Shown: in pieces, positions 1,828 to 54,547 of the stretch
How the letters are laid out: the number at the start of each line of letters is the position of its first letter
How positions within the stretch are numbered: position 1 is the first letter of the stretch
Assembly (NCBI GenBank): GCA_964541255.1
Contig: CAZIPL010000001.1
Span: 2,432-66,431 of the forward strand
DNA length: 64,000 bases
From: an uncultured Clostridia bacterium
GTDB taxonomy: Bacteria > Bacillota > Clostridia > Christensenellales > CAMQZB01
Direction of reading: 5' to 3'
Notes under the pieces: model-generated
Databases searched by the model: none
Seen by the model: only the letters and a program-made list of their open reading frames with translations
Told to the model about the DNA's origin: nothing
Program-made: the position numbers and the translations under genes

Positions 1828-3696
1828 ATGATGAAAAAAGTATTGTCAGTTGTTTTGTCGGTATTGCTTCTTTGTTTGTCGCTCGTCGGACTTTCCGCTT
1901 GCGGCAATGAGGGAGACGAAAATACGTTTACGTTTCTTATAGATTCACCCGAGGATGCGACGTATTATTCCGACTACAACCAAAATCCCGTAGCGATCTA
2001 CACTCAGCACAACCAGCAATATGCAGGCGTTGATATTAAGATCGAATATAAGCAGCTTATAAACGGCTCGCAGAGAGACCAATATACGACGATGATTTCG
2101 ACGGGCGAATACTACGACGTTATGGGGACGAGTTATTCCCCGTATTCTGCGGCGGCTTTGAACGAAATGGGCATTGCGCTTGAGCTTACCGAATACGTCG
2201 AAAAGTGGATGCCTAATTATATGAAGATTTTGAGCGGAAACGAAAATCTTCAAAAAGTAGCTTATGTCGTTGACGAAAACGGTGAGAAGCATATGTACGC
2301 TCTTTGGGGCTGTACCGACACGGCTCAGTATAACTGGGAGGGCTTTTGCTACAGAAGAGACTGGATCGTTAAGTACGGCGTCAATCCGTCAACAGGCGAA
2401 GCGTTCACTGGCGGATATACCGCAGAACGTGACGCAGAGGGCAAGAACGACGGAGCTTCTTGGGTGGACGACGTCAAGTTTCCGTCTTGGTATTCCGACA
2501 ATAAGTACGCTGTCGAATATAGAGCCAATCACCCCGAATGGGACGGAAGCGATCCCGTATTCATTTCCGACTGGGAATGGATGTTCGAGATTTTCGACAA
2601 AGCAAGAACGGACTTAGGTGTTTTCGATAAGGGATACGACATATCTATTTATTACGTAGGATATATGGCAACGGGCGATTTGTTCTCGGCTTTCGGCGGC
2701 GGCTCTCCGATGTGGAGCTATAACCCTCATACTGGAAACGTAGAGTTCAACGCAACGAGTGAGTCTATGCAGTCATACTTGGAATGCCTCAACACTTGGT
2801 ATGAAAAGGGTTGGCTCGATAAAGCTTTTGCAGAGCATTCTTCCGACATGTTCTATCAGATCGATACCGCAAAGGTATATAACGGCTACATCGGAATGTG
2901 GCAGGGTGGACGTTCTACTTTGGCGGAACAGCTCGAAGAAATAGAGAATGCTCCTTGTACGGAAAATATCTATGTAGCGGGCGCAAAGCAGCCTATCAAC
3001 GACTTATACGGAGTTGAAAGCACAAAGGGTAAAGAGCCTTATTCGAAGTTTGCTATGGAAAGCGTTACGACGGCAATCATCGTTACGGAAGCTGCAAAGG
3101 ATAAGAACTTAGAAGCGCTCTTTACTTATCTCGATTCGTTCTACGATACGAGCAATGAAAACTATATCACGAGTAACTACGGACTTACCAAAGAACAGTA
3201 CGAATCTATCGAAGAGTATCAAGAAAAGGTAAACGGACAAACCTTCCAGGAAAGATTCGGAATCCAAGACGGCAGCTATACAACCTATGAAAAAGACGGT
3301 ATGACCGTCTATAAACCTGTCGACGCTCGTCTTTACGACAGCTCCTTAGGAAACGCTTCGAAAGGTAACAGAATGTTCAGATACGCAATCATCGCCGAAT
3401 GCGACGAGTTGACGGCAAACATCTATGATTCCGTAGTAAATCAATGGGAAGCATACCCCAATAAGGGCTATATCCAAGGCTCGATAACCTCGCTTCTTAC
3501 GACGGAACAGGCTGATGCGTACTCCAAGACCAACAGCAAAATCAACGATAAAATGTCGGTTGAAATTCCGAAGTTCATCAACGGAACGTATGATATATAC
3601 GGTGCCGATTGGGATACGTTCTGCAAGACTATAAACAAGATGGGACATTCTAAGATTACGGGTTACTTGCAAGCAATCTACGATTCTTTTAAGTAA
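1828..3696 (+). CDS. ABC-transporter extracellular solute-binding lipoprotein (paralog 2 of 3)
   Basis: ATG 1828 lies 7 nt after RBS aaaggaga. Lipoprotein signal MMKKVLSVVLSVLLLCLSLVGLSAC (lipobox LSAC). The upstream part of ORF 1681.. has no RBS and is not conserved. Homologous to paralogs 1 and 3 along its whole length. Confidence 0.85.
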   Translation: MMKKVLSVVLSVLLLCLSLVGLSACGNEGDENTFTFLIDSPEDATYYSDYNQNPVAIYTQHNQQYAGVDIKIEYKQLINGSQRDQYTTMISTGEYYDVMGTSYSPYSAAALNEMGIALELTEYVEKWMPNYMKILSGNENLQKVAYVVDENGEKHMYALWGCTDTAQYNWEGFCYRRDWIVKYGVNPSTGEAFTGGYTAERDAEGKNDGASWVDDVKFPSWYSDNKYAVEYRANHPEWDGSDPVFISDWEWMFEIFDKARTDLGVFDKGYDISIYYVGYMATGDLFSAFGGGSPMWSYNPHTGNVEFNATSESMQSYLECLNTWYEKGWLDKAFAEHSSDMFYQIDTAKVYNGYIGMWQGGRSTLAEQLEEIENAPCTENIYVAGAKQPINDLYGVESTKGKEPYSKFAMESVTTAIIVTEAAKDKNLEALFTYLDSFYDTSNENYITSNYGLTKEQYESIEEYQEKVNGQTFQERFGIQDGSYTTYEKDGMTVYKPVDARLYDSSLGNASKGNRMFRYAIIAECDELTANIYDSVVNQWEAYPNKGYIQGSITSLLTTEQADAYSKTNSKINDKMSVEIPKFINGTYDIYGADWDTFCKTINKMGHSKITGYLQAIYDSFK

Positions 3697-20474: not shown

Positions 20475-21551
20475 ATGGATAGCGAAAATATATATAACAA
20501 AGAACAGACGGAAACAAAGCAATTCAAATGTCCGTCGTGCGGAAGCGACCTTGTGTTCGATCCCGAAACGCAAAAGCTCAAATGCCCTTATTGCGGAAAA
20601 GAGGTAGAGATAGAAGACGCTTGCAAAGTTTCCGAAAACAACTTTTTCGGAACGCTCGACGAATCGAGCTACAGCGACGACGTAGAAGTTTTCCGTTGCG
20701 ACAATTGCGGCGCGCTTTCGGAAAAGACCTCGTCGGACATAGCGACGGAATGCCCTTATTGTCATAAAACCGTGGTGACGGAAGAAAAGGAGATAAAGGG
20801 CATAAAGCCTCACGGCGTAGTGCCTTTCAAAATCGACAAGGAAAAGGCTTCGAAGAACGTAAAGAAATGGCTCAAAGGCAGATTCTATGCCAACGGCAAG
20901 ATGAAAAAAGCCGACTTTGATACTCTTTTGAAAGGCTATTACTATCCTTGCTGGACTTTCGACGCGAATACATATTCGACCTATAAAGGAAGAATAGGCA
21001 AGCACGTCACAAGAACTGTCGGAAGCGGCAAGAATAAGCATACCGTAACGGAGACTCGTTGGAGACATATAAGCGGCATGTACGAAGATTCTTTCGACGA
21101 CATAGTAATATATTCGGGCAAAGACTTAGAGGGCGGACAGCTTAATAAAGTCATGGGCTTCGATACCAACGGCGCGGAGAAATACGATAAGTCGTATTTA
21201 GCGGGCTTTTCGGCTTTCCACTATACGAAAGACTTCGATACTTCGTGGAATGAGGCAAAAGGGGAGATAGACCAAAGACTTAGAAACGCCATTTTGTCGC
21301 AGTATAGCTACGACGTAGTCGATTACCTCAACGTAAAAACCGCCTATACCGACACCAAGTATAAATACGTCTTGCTTCCGTTCTATATCGGCGGATATAC
21401 CTTCGGCGGAAAGAACTATAACGTCGTAGTCAACGGCGAAAACGGCAAAACGCGCGGCAAATTCCCCGTTTCGGTGCCGAAAGTCGTTATGACGGTGGTT
21501 TTGAGCCTACTTGCGATAGCGGGTATCGTATATTTGTTATACATAATGTAA
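20475..21551 (+). CDS. Double zinc-ribbon protein with conserved central domain and C-terminal TM anchor (unknown function)
   Basis: CPSCG..x..CPYCG and CDNCG..x..CPYCH ribbons, a central domain (GVVPFKIDKEKA..., YYYPCWTFD, VVVNGENGKTRGKFP) and a terminal helix VVMTVVLSLLAIAGIVYLLYI. Confidence 0.6.
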   Translation: MDSENIYNKEQTETKQFKCPSCGSDLVFDPETQKLKCPYCGKEVEIEDACKVSENNFFGTLDESSYSDDVEVFRCDNCGALSEKTSSDIATECPYCHKTVVTEEKEIKGIKPHGVVPFKIDKEKASKNVKKWLKGRFYANGKMKKADFDTLLKGYYYPCWTFDANTYSTYKGRIGKHVTRTVGSGKNKHTVTETRWRHISGMYEDSFDDIVIYSGKDLEGGQLNKVMGFDTNGAEKYDKSYLAGFSAFHYTKDFDTSWNEAKGEIDQRLRNAILSQYSYDVVDYLNVKTAYTDTKYKYVLLPFYIGGYTFGGKNYNVVVNGENGKTRGKFPVSVPKVVMTVVLSLLAIAGIVYLLYIM

Positions 21552-21689: not shown

Positions 21690-24600
21690 ATGAAGAAATC
21701 TTTGAGAATTTTTGTCGCATTGGCTCTCGTTGCCGTATTGGCACTCGGGTGCTTCGCGGGCTGTGAGGCTAAGACCTTCGAACAAAAATACGGCATCACG
21801 ATAAGCGACAAGACTGTTACTTATGACGGCAATGCTTACGGCGTAGAAATCGACGTAAACACGGAAGTACTTAAAGACAGGGAGTATACCGTCGAGTATA
21901 AGTATTCGAAAGACGGACAAGAGTTAGAGGGAACCTCGTTCAAAGACGCGGGCGTATACGACGTAGTCGCATCCGTTCTCGTTGCGGGCGAAGATACCCC
22001 TACGGAGCTTAAAGCAAAGCTCACGATAAATAAAGCAAACGTTGAGGTTGAACTCGGCAATTTCTTCTTGCGTCAGGGACAAGGTCTTTCCTCGATAGGA
22101 AAAGCGTCTTTGTCTGACGATACGGTTAAGCTTCAGGGAACCGACAAGGTCAAAGACTTAGGTAAAGTTTCTTATGAAGTATATAACGGCACCGAAAAGG
22201 TAACAGATCTTTCCGCATTGAAGCCCACCGCAAAAGAAACCGACGCGTTGACGGTTGTCATGGCGTTTGAAAACGAACCGACGAACTATAACTTCACGTT
22301 CAAGAACGGAAAATTATACGTTCTTTCTTCCGCTGACTATTCCGTTGCGGAGAGACTCAAAAAAGAGATCGCCAACGTTCCTACGAGCGAAACGATCAAT
22401 ACCTTCACTTATGACCAAATGCAGTCTTTCGTCGATACGGCGGACGACATCGTTTCGACATACCCCGGAACTTCCGCTATACAGAGACTTATGTCGGGAA
22501 CGGTCAACGTAGAATCCATCTCGGGACTACTTAAGACCGCAAAAGAGCGTCTTTCGATGACCTATTCCGTTGACTTCGACCTCGACAGTTCGGTAGGCAA
22601 GGGATATATCATTGCGATAGAGCATACCGCAAACAATAGCAGAAGCAAAGACGATGACGACTTCCTTTCCGAACTCATGGGAACGAAGAACTCTTCGCTC
22701 ACCGACGTCGAATATAAAGACATCATCTGCTTCGCGATTTATATCAAAGATTCCACGCAATATAAGCTCAACAGCGTTACGGTAAGAGGAAAGTCTTTCA
22801 CGCCTACCACATGGTATAATGCCTCGAAGTATAATGAGGAGACAAATGATACGGTTGCTCTTCTCAAAGCAAAGACAGGAAAAACAACTCTTAGCGGCAA
22901 CGAAATGATTTATCTTTTCGGAAACCCCAGAACAAAAGAATCTGTATTAAATAACAGCAGTAGTCTTGATGATAAATATAAAGATAACAAGGATAACAAC
23001 GATAAAGACGATCAAGGTAAACCAATCAACTACAAGCATTGGTACGGTTCAAAGAACTACGGTGCGCTTTCCGGTTCTGTAATCAACGCTTCTGTACTCG
23101 GAGCATTGGACGGTTCCAACTCCATAACAATCATTCCTAACTACGTAAATCAATATAAGATTTCCGTAGGCGGTGAAGAAAGCAATACGTTCGTTGAGAA
23201 AATAACAGATACCACAAACACTTTTGCAGAAGTTCTTCCCAACGTACAAAAAGTTACGATCTCTTCTAAGGGTACCAACTACTTCAACGCAGGCACGCAG
23301 AGCGTTTCTACGTATATCTATCACGGCTTGATTCCTAACGGTTCCGTAGCTAAGATCACTATTCAGCCTAAGACCGGTTATGTTATCAGCGAAGTTGAAA
23401 TCGGCGATACGACGGTTTCGGCAGATAAGTTCACGAGCAACGGTTATGAATATTCTTACGAATTTACCGTAACGGAAGATATGGTCAACACCAAAGGCGA
23501 ACTTAATATCTACATCAAGCTCGTTGACAGCTATTCGTTGAAAGTTAAGATTAACAATCTCGAAGTAAAGAACTCTTCCAAGAACGGCGTATATACCGAT
23601 AAGAATAAAACGGGTACGATTAAGCTTACTGGCGACGCAATCGTTACGACCGACGTTCCTACACTTTTGGGCGAAAAGTCTTTGACTATCGAAGTAACTC
23701 CTTCTACGAACTATGTTCTTGAATCGCTTGTTCTTAAAGGTAAAAAGTATAATCCCGAATCAACTAATACAGATAAGCTTGACGATAAAACATATAATCT
23801 CTTAACTGATCCGCAATTTAGCTACGTAAACGGCAAAATCTCTATTGACCTTTCGGCTGAAACCGAAGAGCTTCTTTGCACAAAAGATGTAACAATTGAA
23901 GCAACGTTCAAGGAAGTATATCCCATCAAGGTGACTTCTTCGAGAAACGGCGAAGCTTTGGAGACCGCTACAAAGGCAGGTAATTCCTATACGACGAAGT
24001 ACGGCAAAGTAACCGTATACGACGTAGAGGACGAAGAGACCAATAACCTTTATAAGGGACAGCAATACTATATCGAAATCGAAAGCGCAACGGGTTATGT
24101 TCCGTCTAAGATCACTATCGGTGGAACGGTCTTTAACCTTTTGACTCAGGATGATAGTACGGTTGAATATAAGAGATACCAAGTAACTCAAGGCTCCGAT
24201 ATGTACGTTCTTTCGAAGAATGAAAATTCCTCGTCATATATAACTGAAAACGGTCTTGATAAGTTGAAGAGAGATGATACTGAAACTGGGAAGACAAGGT
24301 ATTACCTCATCTGCTCGCCCTCTAAGGTTGCTGCAGGAGAGAACTTCGTTATCGATATCGAATTTGACGCATATTATTACCTCGACCTTGACGTAAGCTA
24401 TGCTAACGGCACAGGAAACGAGGCAATCCTTGAAGCAACACTTCTTATTAAGGGAGTTGTAACAAGTAGCGGTCTTACTAATGATGAAAACACTATTACG
24501 AATCAAGATCCTATAGGTGGAGTTAAGTTTAGTTATCTCGAGTCTTCTGTTATTTATAAGGCAGAGGGAACGCTCTATGCATACTTCAACGATACATCGA

Positions 24601-24845
24601 AGAACAAGATTGGTTTGAAGATCGATCCTAAGAATAATTACACGCTCGAAGATCCTACGTGGCAATACGGAAAGAGCTCCAAAGAGACCAAGTCCAAGAT
24701 GTCGGTAGACAAGACTTACTTCGAAGCTCTCGACGATACGATGCTCGGCGGAACCACCCCCGAAAAGGCAACGATAAAGCCCGGTGATTCCATAACCGTT
24801 TCTTTCGATTGCGACCCCGTAAGAAAAAACACATCTGAGAACTAA
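21690..24845 (+). CDS. 1051-aa surface lipoprotein with N-terminal MBG-like domains and repeated beta-sandwich-like modules
   Basis: Strong RBS aaaggaga. Lipobox signal MKKSLRIFVALALVAVLALGCFAGC. MBG-like patterns VTYDGNAYGV...DAGVYDVVASV...LTINKA and TNYNFTFKNGKLYV. Low-complexity DDKYKDNKDNNDKDDQGKP. Confidence 0.6.
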   Translation: MKKSLRIFVALALVAVLALGCFAGCEAKTFEQKYGITISDKTVTYDGNAYGVEIDVNTEVLKDREYTVEYKYSKDGQELEGTSFKDAGVYDVVASVLVAGEDTPTELKAKLTINKANVEVELGNFFLRQGQGLSSIGKASLSDDTVKLQGTDKVKDLGKVSYEVYNGTEKVTDLSALKPTAKETDALTVVMAFENEPTNYNFTFKNGKLYVLSSADYSVAERLKKEIANVPTSETINTFTYDQMQSFVDTADDIVSTYPGTSAIQRLMSGTVNVESISGLLKTAKERLSMTYSVDFDLDSSVGKGYIIAIEHTANNSRSKDDDDFLSELMGTKNSSLTDVEYKDIICFAIYIKDSTQYKLNSVTVRGKSFTPTTWYNASKYNEETNDTVALLKAKTGKTTLSGNEMIYLFGNPRTKESVLNNSSSLDDKYKDNKDNNDKDDQGKPINYKHWYGSKNYGALSGSVINASVLGALDGSNSITIIPNYVNQYKISVGGEESNTFVEKITDTTNTFAEVLPNVQKVTISSKGTNYFNAGTQSVSTYIYHGLIPNGSVAKITIQPKTGYVISEVEIGDTTVSADKFTSNGYEYSYEFTVTEDMVNTKGELNIYIKLVDSYSLKVKINNLEVKNSSKNGVYTDKNKTGTIKLTGDAIVTTDVPTLLGEKSLTIEVTPSTNYVLESLVLKGKKYNPESTNTDKLDDKTYNLLTDPQFSYVNGKISIDLSAETEELLCTKDVTIEATFKEVYPIKVTSSRNGEALETATKAGNSYTTKYGKVTVYDVEDEETNNLYKGQQYYIEIESATGYVPSKITIGGTVFNLLTQDDSTVEYKRYQVTQGSDMYVLSKNENSSSYITENGLDKLKRDDTETGKTRYYLICSPSKVAAGENFVIDIEFDAYYYLDLDVSYANGTGNEAILEATLLIKGVVTSSGLTNDENTITNQDPIGGVKFSYLESSVIYKAEGTLYAYFNDTSKNKIGLKIDPKNNYTLEDPTWQYGKSSKETKSKMSVDKTYFEALDDTMLGGTTPEKATIKPGDSITVSFDCDPVRKNTSEN

Positions 24846-24876
24846 TTCTAAATAATCAAAAATTATCGAAAAAATA

Positions 24877-25245
24877 GTAATTGATAATTGACAAAGTAGT
24901 TGCAAATTGATAATCTTAATAGTTATTGATGATAAACTTAGTAGTTACTATTTGACAATCTAAGCAGTGAATAATTGACAATATAGCTACCAATTGACAA
25001 AGCAGTTATTGATTTATAATATACTTGCCAATTGACAACGTGGTTACTAATTGGATAATCTAAATAGTTATCAATTAACAATGTGGTTACTAATTGACAA
25101 TCAAAATGGTTATTGATTGGCAATGTAGTTGCCAATTAACAATGTAGGTAATAATTGATGATTAATATCGTTATTATTTGAACTTATGTCGTTATTGATT
25201 GATGATTATATTGTTAGTGATTAATAATTAATATTGTTAATTTCA
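24877..25245. repeat. Array of ~17-18 degenerate 19-24-bp tandem direct repeats built on ATTGACAAT-like cores (iteron-like)
   Basis: ATTGA-type cores start at 24880, 24887, 24906, 24925, 24951, 24974, 24993, 25009, 25031, 25050, 25074, 25093, 25112, 25135, 25154, 25173, 25195 and ~25217. There are five exact ATTGACAA copies. Higher-order 42-43-bp units: 25040-25082 versus 25083-25124 are ~80% identical. GC content looks markedly lower than in the flanking genes (by eye, not computed). Confidence 0.85.
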
Positions 25246-25246
25246 A

Positions 25247-25290
25247 ATACAACAAGAACCCAAGTATTCAAACTTGGGTTCTTGTTGTAT
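25247..25290. repeat. Perfect 19-bp inverted repeat (hairpin) with 6-nt loop
   Basis: atacaacaagaacccaagt attcaa acttgggttcttgttgtat. No clear U-tract on either strand. Confidence 0.9.
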
Positions 25291-25312
25291 TAAAAATGTT
25301 ATATCAAAAATC

Positions 25313-25505
25313 CTCGTAGGGCGGTGGCTCTGCTGCCGCCGAATGCAACCACCATACTCAAATGAACGTTGGTAAATTGTGGTAGGGCGGGGGTTCTACT
25401 CCCGCCGCATAATATTTTTTATACTCTCTACACGTCGTAGGGCGGGGTAAATTGTGGTAGGACGGAGCAAATTGTGGTAGGGCGGGGGTTCTTACTCCCG
25501 CCGAA
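25313..25505. repeat. Cluster of five GC-rich GTAGG[G/A]CGG units, three of them forming GGCGG...CCGCC hairpins (REP-like)
   Basis: Units: ctcgtagggcggtggctctgctgccgcc (25313), aaattgtggtagggcgggggttctactcccgcc (25374), cgtagggcgggg (25436), aaattgtggtaggacggagc (25449), aaattgtggtagggcgggggttcttactcccgcc (25469). Confidence 0.85.
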
Positions 25506-25509
25506 AAAA

Positions 25510-25559
25510 GGCTCCCATTGAAGGGAGCTGTCTGCGGAGCAGACTGAGGGATTGACAAA
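25510..25559 (+). repeat. Two-hairpin element with conserved GACTGAGGGATTGACAAA tail (copy A of a dispersed family)
   Basis: gctccc/gggagc and gtctgc/gcagac stems followed by TGAGGGATTGACAAA. Related copies at 32265-32320 and 54408-54463. Confidence 0.8.
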
Positions 25560-32264: not shown

Positions 32265-32320
32265 GGCTCCCTTAGTAATGGCGCTGTTTCGGCGTTGCCG
32301 AGACTGAGGGATTGATAAAA
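32265..32320 (+). repeat. Copy B of the GACTGAGGGATTG-tail element
   Basis: ggctccc...tcggc gtt gccga GACTGAGGGATTGATAAAA. The 13-mer GACTGAGGGATTG is identical to copy A. Confidence 0.75.
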
Positions 32321-32350
32321 TGCAGCATAACATTGTTTTATTGACTCTAA

Positions 32351-32367
32351 CTCGTAGGGCGGTGGCT
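32351..32367 (+). repeat. Truncated GTAGGGCGG unit, 17/17 identical to 25313-25329
   Basis: ctcgtagggcggtggct is present, but the 3' arm (ctgccgcc) seen at 25330-25340 is absent here. Confidence 0.8.
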
Positions 32368-32471: not shown

Positions 32472-33628
32472 GTAGATTGTCAAGCAAGTGCAACGCCAAA
32501 GAATATTTCGTAGGGGGTTTTCCACCCCAAGCATTTTTTAGGTCTTTTGTTTATGGATAATACTACTTCGTTTAGGCTTTTTTCGTCCAATGTATGAAAA
32601 TTATATCCTTTGGGATAATAAAATCTTAATATATCGTTTGTATTTTCATTTGTTCCTCTTTGCCATGGTTTATGTGGCTCTGCAAAATACACCTCCGCAT
32701 TTATTCTTTTCTCTAATTCTCTGAATTCCGAAAATTCAGATCCATTATCCAACAAAATACTTTTAACCGGTTTACTCTTTAATAGCTTTTCTATCATTTC
32801 TCTTGTTTCAGTAGCCGACCGACTTCGTATTATTCTCGCACATAAATATCTACTCTTTCTATTCACCAATGTTACTAATAAACCTTTTCCGATTCCTCCG
32901 TAAACGGTATCACCCTCCCAATCGCCTATTCGCATACGTTTTTTGATCTCATCTTTCCATTCGGGGTGTATAGTATTATAGTTGCTGCTTCGAGGATATC
33001 TATGTTTATCTCGTCGTCTTAAGTGTTCTTTTGCTGTAATTTTGGGAAATCTATTCTCTTTTATTGCTCTATATATCGTTGATACGCTTATTCTTTTACG
33101 TTGGGGATTCTCCAATCCCCAACGTCCGCTTATTTGTTCCGGGCTCCAATATTCTTTTAGGTGTTTTACGACATATTCCCATTCTTCTGTATTTGGTTTT
33201 AAAGCATAATTATCTCGGTGGCGTCTTCGCATTATATATAAAGTTTGAGCTCTCCACGAATTATACCAAAACGTATTATCCGACTTTCCGTGAGGTTTGA
33301 ATTTCGCTTTATTTCTTCTTACTTCTCGACTGATTGTAGACGGACTTCTCCCTAATATATCTGCAATTCCCCTAAAACTAATTCCTTCGGCAAGAAATTT
33401 TTGTAGACTTTTTCTTTCTTCTATTGTAAAATGATTATATGACTTCATACTACTCCTTTGTATATGTGTTTTGTGGATAATTACATTTTATACTTTGGAC
33501 GATATGAAGTCTATTCTTTTTATCTAAGTCTATATTCTTCATTCAAGGCTTCGCCTTTTATTCAAAATATAGACTTTCCTTAATGGGCTTTCTTATTCTT
33601 GTGTTGCACTTCAAATTATATCCTATCC
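32472..33628 (-). mobile_element. IS30-family insertion sequence (~1.16 kb; ends approximate)
   Basis: Single transposase ORF. Terminal inverted repeats share the core AAGTGCAAC (32486-32494 versus the reverse complement of 33603-33611). The left end, gGTAGATTGTCAAGCAAGTGCAACGCC, begins like IS30-type IRs. The left IR overlaps the 3' end of the transposase gene. Confidence 0.7.
32480..33448 (-). CDS. IS30-family DDE transposase
   Basis: N-terminal HTH HFTIEERKSLQKFLAEG...STISREVRRN. DDE region DWEGDT ... LDNGSEF ... PWQRGTNENTN. Confidence 0.9.
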   Translation of the reverse strand: MKSYNHFTIEERKSLQKFLAEGISFRGIADILGRSPSTISREVRRNKAKFKPHGKSDNTFWYNSWRAQTLYIMRRRHRDNYALKPNTEEWEYVVKHLKEYWSPEQISGRWGLENPQRKRISVSTIYRAIKENRFPKITAKEHLRRRDKHRYPRSSNYNTIHPEWKDEIKKRMRIGDWEGDTVYGGIGKGLLVTLVNRKSRYLCARIIRSRSATETREMIEKLLKSKPVKSILLDNGSEFSEFRELEKRINAEVYFAEPHKPWQRGTNENTNDILRFYYPKGYNFHTLDEKSLNEVVLSINKRPKKCLGWKTPYEIFFGVALA

Positions 33629-54252: not shown

Positions 54253-54407
54253 AAAAGGACCTATATTTGTTCGTAAGAGAGGCTAATCTTTCAAGCGAAG
54301 TAATGCAAAGAGTATAGCTGTGAGGTAATAAAACAATTCTTCGGTCGCCTATGGTGACAGCTCTGACAAAAGTGAGCTTATTGATAAAACATTGTCATCA
54401 TTTGTTG

Positions 54408-54463
54408 CCTCCTTTGTGTAAAGGGAGGGTGTCACGGCGTTATGCGCCGTGACGGAGGGATTG
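54408..54463 (+). repeat. Copy C of the two-hairpin element with GACGGAGGGATTG tail
   Basis: cctccttt/aaagg(g)agg stem, then the perfect 9-bp stem gtcacggcg/cgccgtgac, then GGAGGGATTG. Confidence 0.75.
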
Positions 54464-54547
54464 CTACTTCTGTTAATGCTTTGTTCCTTGCTTCAATGAA
54501 TGTAAAAAATCAAGAATAATATTTTAATAAAAAAGAGAGTATAAAAT

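Follow-up and report, generated by a model that had tools for sequence, protein, structure and literature searches.

Miniature inverted-repeat transposable elements (MITEs), such as Correia/NEMIS, ERIC and RUP, are derived from insertion sequence (IS) elements by internal deletion. The ends of IS200/IS605 elements and of the gene-less PATEs (palindrome-associated transposable elements) carry subterminal DNA hairpins that are recognised at the single-strand DNA level, without target-site duplication, and in IS200 hairpins in the leader control the Shine–Dalgarno (SD) sequence of the transposase gene. Repetitive extragenic palindromic (REP) elements and REPINs, together with a RAYT gene, are found in Proteobacteria (PMC3116915, PMC3337134), and Vsr, the Vsr-like (EDxHD) homing endonuclease I-Bth0305I and DUF559 are listed in one clade of PD-(D/E)XK nucleases (PMC3424549). 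Here we describe a family of dispersed palindromic repeats of two types, T1 and T2, four copies of which (A–D) lie in a 64-kb stretch from an uncultured Clostridia bacterium (contig CAZIPL010000001.1, positions 2,432 to 66,431), henceforth the window. In other genomes a ~450-bp mini-cassette, with as its sole gene that of a 122-amino-acid (aa) DUF559 protein (Vsr-like PD-(D/E)XK), is bounded by imperfect terminal inverted repeats, T2 on the left and T1 on the right. We estimate at roughly 60% the probability that the sites in the window are solo, gene-less copies of the end-repeats of this cassette, members of a REP/MITE-like family that operates at the DNA level.

Results

Members of the family share a hairpin 1 of the form G(G/C)CTCCC-loop-GGGAG(C/G), a variable hairpin 2 and the 13-nt tail GAC(T/G)GAGGGATTG, the repeat measuring ~48–57 nt in all. 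Type T1 reads GGCTCCC..GGGAGC-hairpin 2-GACTGAGGGATTG, with AAA-GGCTCCCTTGTGTAAAGGGAGC-TGTC[stem]-loop-[stem]GAC-TGAGGGATTG-T as consensus, and type T2 reads GCCTCCC..GGGAGG-hairpin 2-GACGGAGGGATTG, with GCCTCCCTTGTGTAAAGGGAGG-TGGC..GAC-GGAGGGATTG-TAAAA as consensus; copies A and B in the window are T1, copy C is T2. Scanning one genome per species with the pattern GGCTCCC-N15-45-GACTGAGGGATTG returned at least 118 loci, nearly all from metagenome-assembled genomes (MAGs) of Clostridia (Oscillospiraceae, Acutalibacteraceae, Ruminococcus, Faecousia and unclassified Clostridia), many of the matches being located at contig ends, and the same pattern was found in 108 IMG/VR viral contigs. The original prediction had been made on three copies in the window; with covariance model R1, 234 copies are found in the 673 kb of genome loci. 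The seed of R1 (A2) comprises 32 rows, namely 30 real 48-nt T1 copies and two artificial T2-like chimeras that were added so that the model accepts T2 and that are present in this seed only, alignment A3 being made up of matches from the loci. The element had not been recognised as a described family, and this agrees with the Rfam comparison: at gathering threshold Rfam 15 returns only tRNA from the window, and there is no match to the window copies at E ≤ 5 or to canonical copies in ten loci at E ≤ 1. A literature search with the 13-mers of the element gave one match, unrelated, and PHROGs and PADLOC gave weak domain-level matches at most. The T1/T2 family is apparently undescribed.

The genome loci contain 43 short tail-to-tail pairs, nearly all of one T1 and one T2, with gaps of 1–100 nt (mode ~25). 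In these doublets of ~95–210 bp, T2 and T1 form imperfect inverted ends around a short non-coding core, and 14 more doublets are present in the viral contigs. Six further pairs (L019, L051, L071, L099, L109 and L110) have a gap of 346–348 nt that holds an open reading frame (ORF) of ~122 aa, on the strand on which T2 is forward. The encoded protein belongs to DUF559 (Pfam PF04480, E = 3.6e-30; PDB 3HRL, E = 2e-12; NCBIfam name 'DUF559 domain-containing protein') and gives no Y1_Tnp match. Gene and repeats are interlocked at both ends. The T2 tail GGAGGGATTGTA-ATG (read GACGGAGGGATTGTA-ATG) is the SD and start context of the gene, while the reverse complement of T1, CAA TCC CTC AGT CAG CTT CGC TGA, encodes the final residues QSLSQLR and the stop codon, the latter positioned inside hairpin 2 and followed by hairpin 1 and then TTT. 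The T/G difference between the two tails converts TGAGGG (T1) into GGAGGG (T2), which is the better SD, at the 5' end only. The shortest doublets (L032 and L116) carry a near-perfect 29-bp palindrome, GACGGAGGGATTG-TAA-CAATCCCTCAGTC, at the place where the gene would sit. DUF559 genes or fragments number 13 in the genome loci; the majority of genomic copies lack a gene, being T2> <T1 doublets or single halves, and all four copies in the window are of the latter kind. No matched occupied and empty alleles of the DUF559 gene site were found. One 632-nt contig from a k=141 assembly (L261) has its first 141 nt identical to its last 141 nt, so that the 491-bp unit, a DUF559 ORF with one forward and one reverse T-like repeat, is self-closing, either as a tandem array or as a circle.

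An independent check on the association of gene and repeat came from DUF559 homologs that were selected on protein similarity and not on the presence of the repeat. Close homologs form at least 8000 clusters of 90% identity at E ≤ 1e-10, mostly on contigs of 0.5–1.3 kb, a multicopy signature. Of two homologs picked in this way, P0092 has canonical T2 and T1 flanks and resides between MgtC and GH36 genes, and P0047 resides between GDPD and HAD genes. The T1-encoded C-terminus QSLSQ.. is found in 137 of 162 close homologs and the ExDGxxH motif in 158 of these. A representative search yielded 21,585 DUF559 clusters of 50% identity at E ≤ 0.001; among the best 150 representatives ~11 have the QSLSQ tail, and many others end as translated versions of other GC-hairpin repeats. 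Three representatives (55–56% identity) feature diverged flanks with the same order of hairpin 1, hairpin 2 and tail, for example GCCTTCCCC..GGGGAAGG, a second hairpin and then ATGAGGGG. Diverged DUF559 clades thus come with correspondingly diverged flanks, indicating that gene and flanks diverged together. Our literature search found no paper linking DUF559 to flanking repeats. As a separate observation, comparison of L120 with L119 and L122 revealed an unrelated ~165-bp insertion 3' of the DUF559 cassette (L120, ~2984–3150), with 18-bp terminal inverted repeats GGCATCACCGCGCAATTC and a TTAA site, which is present or absent among samples of one species and constitutes a MITE polymorphism.

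The structure of the repeat is kept by compensatory change. Counted over 125 distinct real copies, in an alignment fitted to the model and in a manner that is not phylogeny-aware, standard pairs occupy 97.5% of cells (83.4% in shuffles) and both sides have changed in 216 cells (53 in shuffles), with a covariation score of 0.317 compared to 0.074 for shuffled copies and at most 0.026 with slid partners. All five variable pairs of hairpin 2 occur as several pair types, and G-U pairs and one-sided changes are almost absent. Selection on structure combined with a conserved sequence, as proposed from the three copies, is therefore borne out by these counts. The accompanying statement that the stems differ completely holds for hairpin 2, which varies freely; hairpin 1 keeps its sequence throughout the family, the G-C/C-G swap that distinguishes T1 from T2 being itself compensatory.

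The apex of hairpin 2 is a triloop in 94 of 134 cases and is closed by a C-G pair in 115 of 134. Among these triloops GNA (62 of 94) far outnumbers TNC (2), in T1 and T2 alike, and of 153 unique copies 42 carry the exact motif GCGN(N)AGC, the figure for its reverse complement being 2. The mini-hairpin d(GCGAAGC) melts at 76.5 °C as DNA and at 39 °C as RNA, and single-strand replication origins as well as hairpin promoters are known to contain the motif (PMC13037366; see also PMC3201870). Since T1 in its forward orientation runs antisense to the cassette gene, the apex bias tracks the symmetry of the ends and not the mRNA. We infer that the hairpins act in DNA, extruded or single-stranded, rather than in RNA. 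In addition, three run lengths vary together, that of C in the 5' arm of hairpin 1 and those of G in the 3' arm and in the tail (CCCT/AGGGA/GGGATTG in 125 copies, CCCC/GGGGA/GGGGTTG in 20, mixed in 3), so that the 5' arm can pair with the tail instead of with the 3' arm. This 5' arm is a perfect anti-SD (CCUCCC), and the coupled arms and tail may constitute an SD-occlusion switch in the T2 leader.

The copies lie outside genes, show no preferred orientation and vary in their presence. Where the neighbouring genes are in tandem, 22 solo copies point the same way as the genes and 32 the opposite way (p = 0.22), and 22 solo copies occupy convergent spacers versus 8 in divergent spacers (p = 0.016). 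Enrichment in the flanks is limited to AAA before and T after the repeat, AAA..TTT being itself an inverted repeat, and at least five A residues in the 8 nt upstream of hairpin 1 are found in only 26–34% of copies. Hairpin 2 is often common to the copies of one MAG (L007, L035, L040 and L060), and in one MAG separate loci (L020 and L036) harbour members of a subfamily characterised by a TTTGG loop and by homologous 65–70-nt spacers. Doublets with similar right flanks are present in four species representatives (L027, L046, L095 and L105), of which only L046 and L095 are confirmed to align (96.5% identity); the likeness suggests that these doublets occupy orthologous sites.

Within the window, R1 (filters off) finds four copies, the next best match scoring 8 bits. 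Copy A (25510..25554, + strand; 55.2 bits, E ~2e-15) is a solo T1 that reads GGCTCCC-ATTGAA-GGGAGC, TGTCTGC-GGA-GCAGAC and then TGAGGGATTG, with a loop in hairpin 1 shorter than the family consensus TTGTGTAAA. Copy B (32265..32314, + strand; 28.3 bits, E ~6e-7), likewise a solo T1, reads GGCTCCC TTAGTAATGGCGC, followed by TTCGGC-GTT-GCCGAG as hairpin 2 and GACTGAGGGATTG as tail; the 3' arm of its hairpin 1 is decayed, leaving a single local hairpin, and in its minimum-energy fold the GGCTCCC head pairs with the GAGGGA tail. Copy C (54407..54463, + strand; 46.4 bits, E ~1e-12) is a T2 with sequence GCCTCCTTT-GTGT-AAAGGGAGG, GTCACGGCG-TTAT-GCGCCGTGAC, GGAGGGATTG and, unlike the T2 of full cassettes, has no gene after its tail. 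Copy D (54334..54378, − strand; 27.0 bits, E ~1.6e-6, over the full model length) is a decayed T1-like repeat, AGCTCACTTTTGTCA-GAGC TGTCACC-ATA-GGCGAC CGAAGAATTG, that is placed head-to-head with copy C at a distance of 28 nt and that the original prediction did not contain.

The three copies that had been predicted are present at their coordinates, and the window contains exactly three occurrences of the 9-mer GAGGGATTG, always on the + strand, with 0.21 expected and none of 100 shuffles reaching three; with one mismatch allowed, its count is at background level. The tail is conserved as reported, with AGACTGAGGGATTGA common to copies A and B and GACGGAGGGATTG in copy C. Two adjacent hairpins, ascribed to the element in general, are indeed predicted for copies A and C (fold z-scores of −3.6 and −4.4), copy B retaining one. 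A uniform orientation holds for copies A–C and, with copy D on the minus strand, does not characterise the element. From the + strand genes upstream, given as 150–670 nt away, copy A is separated by 665 nt and copy C by 156 nt; copy B falls outside this range at 127 nt. The AAAAAA directly 5' of copy A makes its minus-strand hairpin 1 with TTTTTT terminator-like, and in a terminator scan copy A passes on the minus strand (25528-25511), with no pass at the element for copies B and C. A search with DUF559 proteins (tblastn) detected no DUF559 similarity anywhere in the window, pseudogenes beside the copies included, and neither copy A nor copy B has a tail-to-tail inverted partner, the neighbour of copy C being the head-to-head copy D; the copies in the window are accordingly solo halves. 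Two other readings of the tail were rejected: TTGACA/TTGATA as promoter element comes without a matching −10 box, and the small ORFs that start at an ATG after the tail in copies A and B encode peptides that are not conserved, copy C having no ATG.

Copies D and C share the 295-nt spacer between the MatE and ChrA genes (54253..54547). A relative with an 88%-identical ChrA has the same Acyltransferase-MatE-ChrA-ChrA gene order, and there the spacer is 46 nt long and repeat-free (locus L129; MatE end 2454, ChrA start 2501). Judged by this comparison of sequences, the spacer in the window is a filled site and that in the relative an empty one. At the locus of copy A, the gene upstream of MerR is another one in the closest relatives, and no filled/empty pair was found; among the genome loci orthologous pairs were too few for further empty sites.

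The genes around the copies encode a MerR protein, an FAD-dependent protein, MatE, ChrA and an IS30-like transposase, and together with their homologs these genes assign the window to an uncultured member of the Clostridia, the closest named relatives being only 65% identical; an exact look-up of the MerR protein of the window gave no record. Directly 5' of copy A a second repeat family is found, consisting of five GTAG-headed GC hairpins (GTAGGGCGG..CCGCC; 25316-25505, + strand) that start at 25316, 25382, 25437, 25457 and 25477. A sixth, truncated one (CTCGTAGGGCGGTGGCT) is located at 32350-32366 (+ strand), 3' of copy B, and similar GTAGGGGCGACC..GGTCGCCC hairpins adjoin T1 copies in L026, L040 and L075. 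In its GTAG head this second family is reminiscent of classical REP elements. The IS30-like transposase gene (HTH_38 + rve; 32480-33448, − strand) is 160 nt away from copy B. The GTAG repeat at 32350-32366 stops where the copy at 25312-25344 continues, which suggests that the IS inserted into the repeat; inverted repeats around the IS30-like gene were sought and not resolved. Further upstream of copy A, a ~390-nt AT-rich array (24850-25240) of AATTGACAA / TAGTTAY units, with TRF periods of 38–45, lies between a 1051-aa ORF (21690-24845, + strand) and a strong hairpin with 26-nt arms (25240-25297), and from its sequence looks like a cluster of protein-binding sites or iterons. The 1051-aa ORF has no Pfam match and is preceded by that of a zinc-ribbon-rich protein (20475-21551). 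In relatives with an 84%-identical MerR an AraC-like gene takes the position of this ORF, so that the block may be an inserted island.

Discussion

The original prediction had left the choice between a structured RNA and a DNA-level REP-like site, and it is the latter that the evidence favours. If the copies in the window are indeed solo ends of the DUF559 cassette, gene-less doublets and solos would be either non-autonomous derivatives or target sites of the nuclease cassette, in a relation like that of REPINs to RAYT genes or of MITEs to IS elements. The DUF559 nuclease would recognise the repeats and spread or maintain them. Two sub-models can be envisaged, a MITE/REPIN-like one with the cassette as the autonomous parent, and a homing-like one with the gene inserted in the middle of its own palindromic target. 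Because both the viral loci and the window are devoid of DUF559, any action of the nuclease there must be in trans. The four copies in the window themselves are probably inert relics, with at most incidental effects on read-through transcription.

Several points weigh against this reading. To our knowledge, transposase or homing activity has never been demonstrated for DUF559, and the T2 and T1 flanks can also be understood simply as the gene's own leader and 3' end. The P0092 and P0047 alleles each stay at one fixed locus across many samples, neither allele being seen at several loci, so no recent transposition is apparent; DUF559 paralogs within one locus are only 61% identical; and the flanks of 51 doublets and cassettes show no target-site duplication. 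The viral loci, 969 kb in total, contain 156 repeats and 14 doublets and not a single DUF559 gene. The edges of the empty site are AT-rich and cannot be located with single-base precision, and the covariation counts are subject to the model-fitted alignment mentioned above. Going one step further, the proposal that the 122-aa DUF559 nuclease both recognises and propagates the T1/T2 hairpins or the tail-to-tail palindrome, which would make the cassette a new and exceptionally small class of autonomous mobile or homing element, is tentative and in our estimate has the odds against it.

The main rival is a purely RNA-level account with T2 as leader and T1 as 3' end. Here the repeats would be expression signals only, T2 being the DUF559 mRNA leader (an anti-SD/decoy-SD hairpin, a second hairpin and the SD) and the reverse complement of T1 the 3' end and terminator, and doublets and solos would be the debris of decayed or deleted DUF559 genes, with neither mobility of the repeats nor action of the nuclease on them. 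The way in which the T2 tail provides SD and start, and T1 the stop followed by hairpin 1 and TTT, is what such an account predicts, as is the T/G change, which makes for a better SD at the 5' end alone. The joint variation of the two hairpin 1 arms and the tail would fit an alternative anti-SD:SD pairing, and doublet spacers of 1–100 nt are as expected from independent deletions. We nevertheless consider it unlikely. It accounts for the copies that bear a gene, but gene-less copies are in large excess (13 genes versus at least 183 repeats in the genome loci, 0 versus 156 in the viral ones), and the homologous spacers of the L020 and L036 doublets suggest propagation as units. Moreover, the GNA/mini-hairpin bias resides on the element-forward strand of T1 as well, antisense to the gene, and hairpin 1 followed by ~3 U is a weak terminator, the share of copies with five or more A residues upstream being small.

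Less probable again is that the repeats are REP-like elements moved by an IS200/IS605-type Y1 transposase (RAYT) or by another enzyme, with DUF559 as a passenger or as a homing gene inside the doublet. The doublets are organised like REPINs (PMC3337134), GTAG-headed hairpins stand beside the copies, GTAG being the RAYT cleavage head in classical REPs, and an IS30-like transposase gene neighbours copy B; the 29-bp near-palindrome of the shortest doublets would, in addition, suit a dimeric nuclease as homing site. However, the gene flanked by T1 and T2 is DUF559 in every case found, with no flanked Y1 transposase seen, and T1 and T2 themselves have no GTAG head. Across a large clade the SD and the last codons are built from the repeats, and the co-diverged clades and flanks indicate a long joint descent instead of chance capture.

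Similarly, we regard it as improbable, and somewhat more so, that the repeat has been domesticated by its hosts, whether to terminate transcription in both directions, to stabilise mRNA 3' ends or to bind a nucleoid protein, roles proposed for the REP elements and bacterial interspersed mosaic elements (REP/BIME) of E. coli, and is selected at gene ends. Solo copies do avoid divergent promoter spacers and favour regions with a gene 3' end, but such avoidance is equally expected of any tolerated selfish insertion. Copy A passes the terminator scan on its minus strand, yet the terminator-like strand of copies A and C faces no gene, and the U-tract is short in most copies. Doublets apparently persist in four species representatives, on the likeness of right flanks of which only those of L046 and L095 were aligned, whereas the C/D insert is dispensable in a close relative. 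Finally, a free-standing structured RNA on the + strand (a small RNA, a 3' untranslated region element or a processing signal), the other option of the original prediction, is very improbable: compensatory change in hairpin 2, significant predicted folds and a conserved single-stranded tail, purine-rich on one strand and CCCUC-rich on the other, that could pair with an SD or anti-SD are offset by an inconsistent orientation to transcription (22 versus 32, with the fourth window copy on the opposite strand), by the near absence of G-U pairs and one-sided changes, by an apex motif that is stable as DNA and not as RNA (PMC13037366), by the lack of the C/D insert in the relative, and by the lack of any conserved promoter or terminator around the copies and of an Rfam match.

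Should the nuclease indeed recognise and propagate the repeats, solo ends and non-autonomous doublets of its own cassette would be spread through gut Clostridia and their phages, and the large DUF559 family would obtain a first function. The association ties DUF559 to a concrete candidate DNA substrate, namely a pair of defined hairpins, of which one has a mini-hairpin apex, together with the 13-nt tail. Were the nuclease to act on the repeats, this would amount to a REPIN/RAYT-like or homing-like system with a different enzyme fold in Firmicutes, and a small structure-specific nuclease could be obtained from it; otherwise the repeats still mark a self-contained expression cassette whose leader and 3' end are mutually inverted copies. 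On a practical note, the repeat is abundant in dominant gut Clostridia, and the occurrence of the homologs on 0.5–1.3 kb contigs suggests that it breaks metagenome assemblies. It also yields spurious small ORFs, such as ..LSAKLTEGL.. and ..NPSVT..PPPFTQGRL...

Comparison with Known Systems

The Rfam Gut-1 motif (RF01706) resembles T1/T2 in forming hairpin arrays from gut metagenomes, and differs from it in sequence, its hairpins being spaced by GTGAAAT; T1 and T2 themselves do not match Rfam. Beside a T2/T1 doublet in L061 (113-316) we observed hairpin arrays spaced by GTGATATT that match RF01706 at 32 and 31 bits, below the gathering threshold of 50. It is possible that Gut-1, too, belongs with T1/T2 among the dispersed DNA repeats.

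With IS200/IS605 elements and PATEs the T1/T2 family has in common subterminal hairpins that would function at the level of single-stranded DNA, the position of hairpins near an SD and the absence of target-site duplication. The end hairpins of these elements are, however, on the same strand, whereas T1 and T2 are mirror images on opposite strands, and no Y1 TnpA or TnpB gene is present between the T1/T2 ends. The DUF559 protein of the cassette belongs to the same fold superfamily as Vsr and I-Bth0305I, and the latter sets a precedent for a selfish Vsr-like homing enzyme. In contrast to the gene for I-Bth0305I, the DUF559 gene is free-standing instead of intron-borne, and it lies between the halves of a dispersed palindromic repeat and not in a conserved host gene.

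MITEs and T1/T2 doublets are alike in having terminal inverted repeats of ~50 nt around a short AT-rich core, at ~95–210 bp in total, in the large excess of gene-less over gene-bearing copies and in the occurrence of subfamilies with their own loop and spacer variants. T1/T2 differs in that no target-site duplication is detected and in that many copies are single halves, and the ~450-bp gene-bearing 'parent', which has the same ends, encodes a DUF559 nuclease and no recognised transposase. The REP/REPIN-RAYT and T1/T2 systems both feature short extragenic palindromes in many copies, single or as inverted doublets with a short spacer, a full-length form with a small nuclease-type gene between two inverted repeats, and positions that persist, in T1/T2 apparently, between related species. 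The flanked gene, however, is here DUF559/Vsr-like PD-(D/E)XK and not a Y1 HUH transposase, and the unit consists of two hairpins and a conserved 13-nt tail, starting with AAA-G(G/C)CTCCC and lacking a GTAG head. In addition, the two ends are distinct and double as the SD and the last codons of the gene, and the hosts are Clostridia. In its working the T1/T2-DUF559 pair is thus closest to the REP/REPIN-RAYT and MITE-IS pairs, from which it is set apart by its enzyme, the GTAG head and target duplications.

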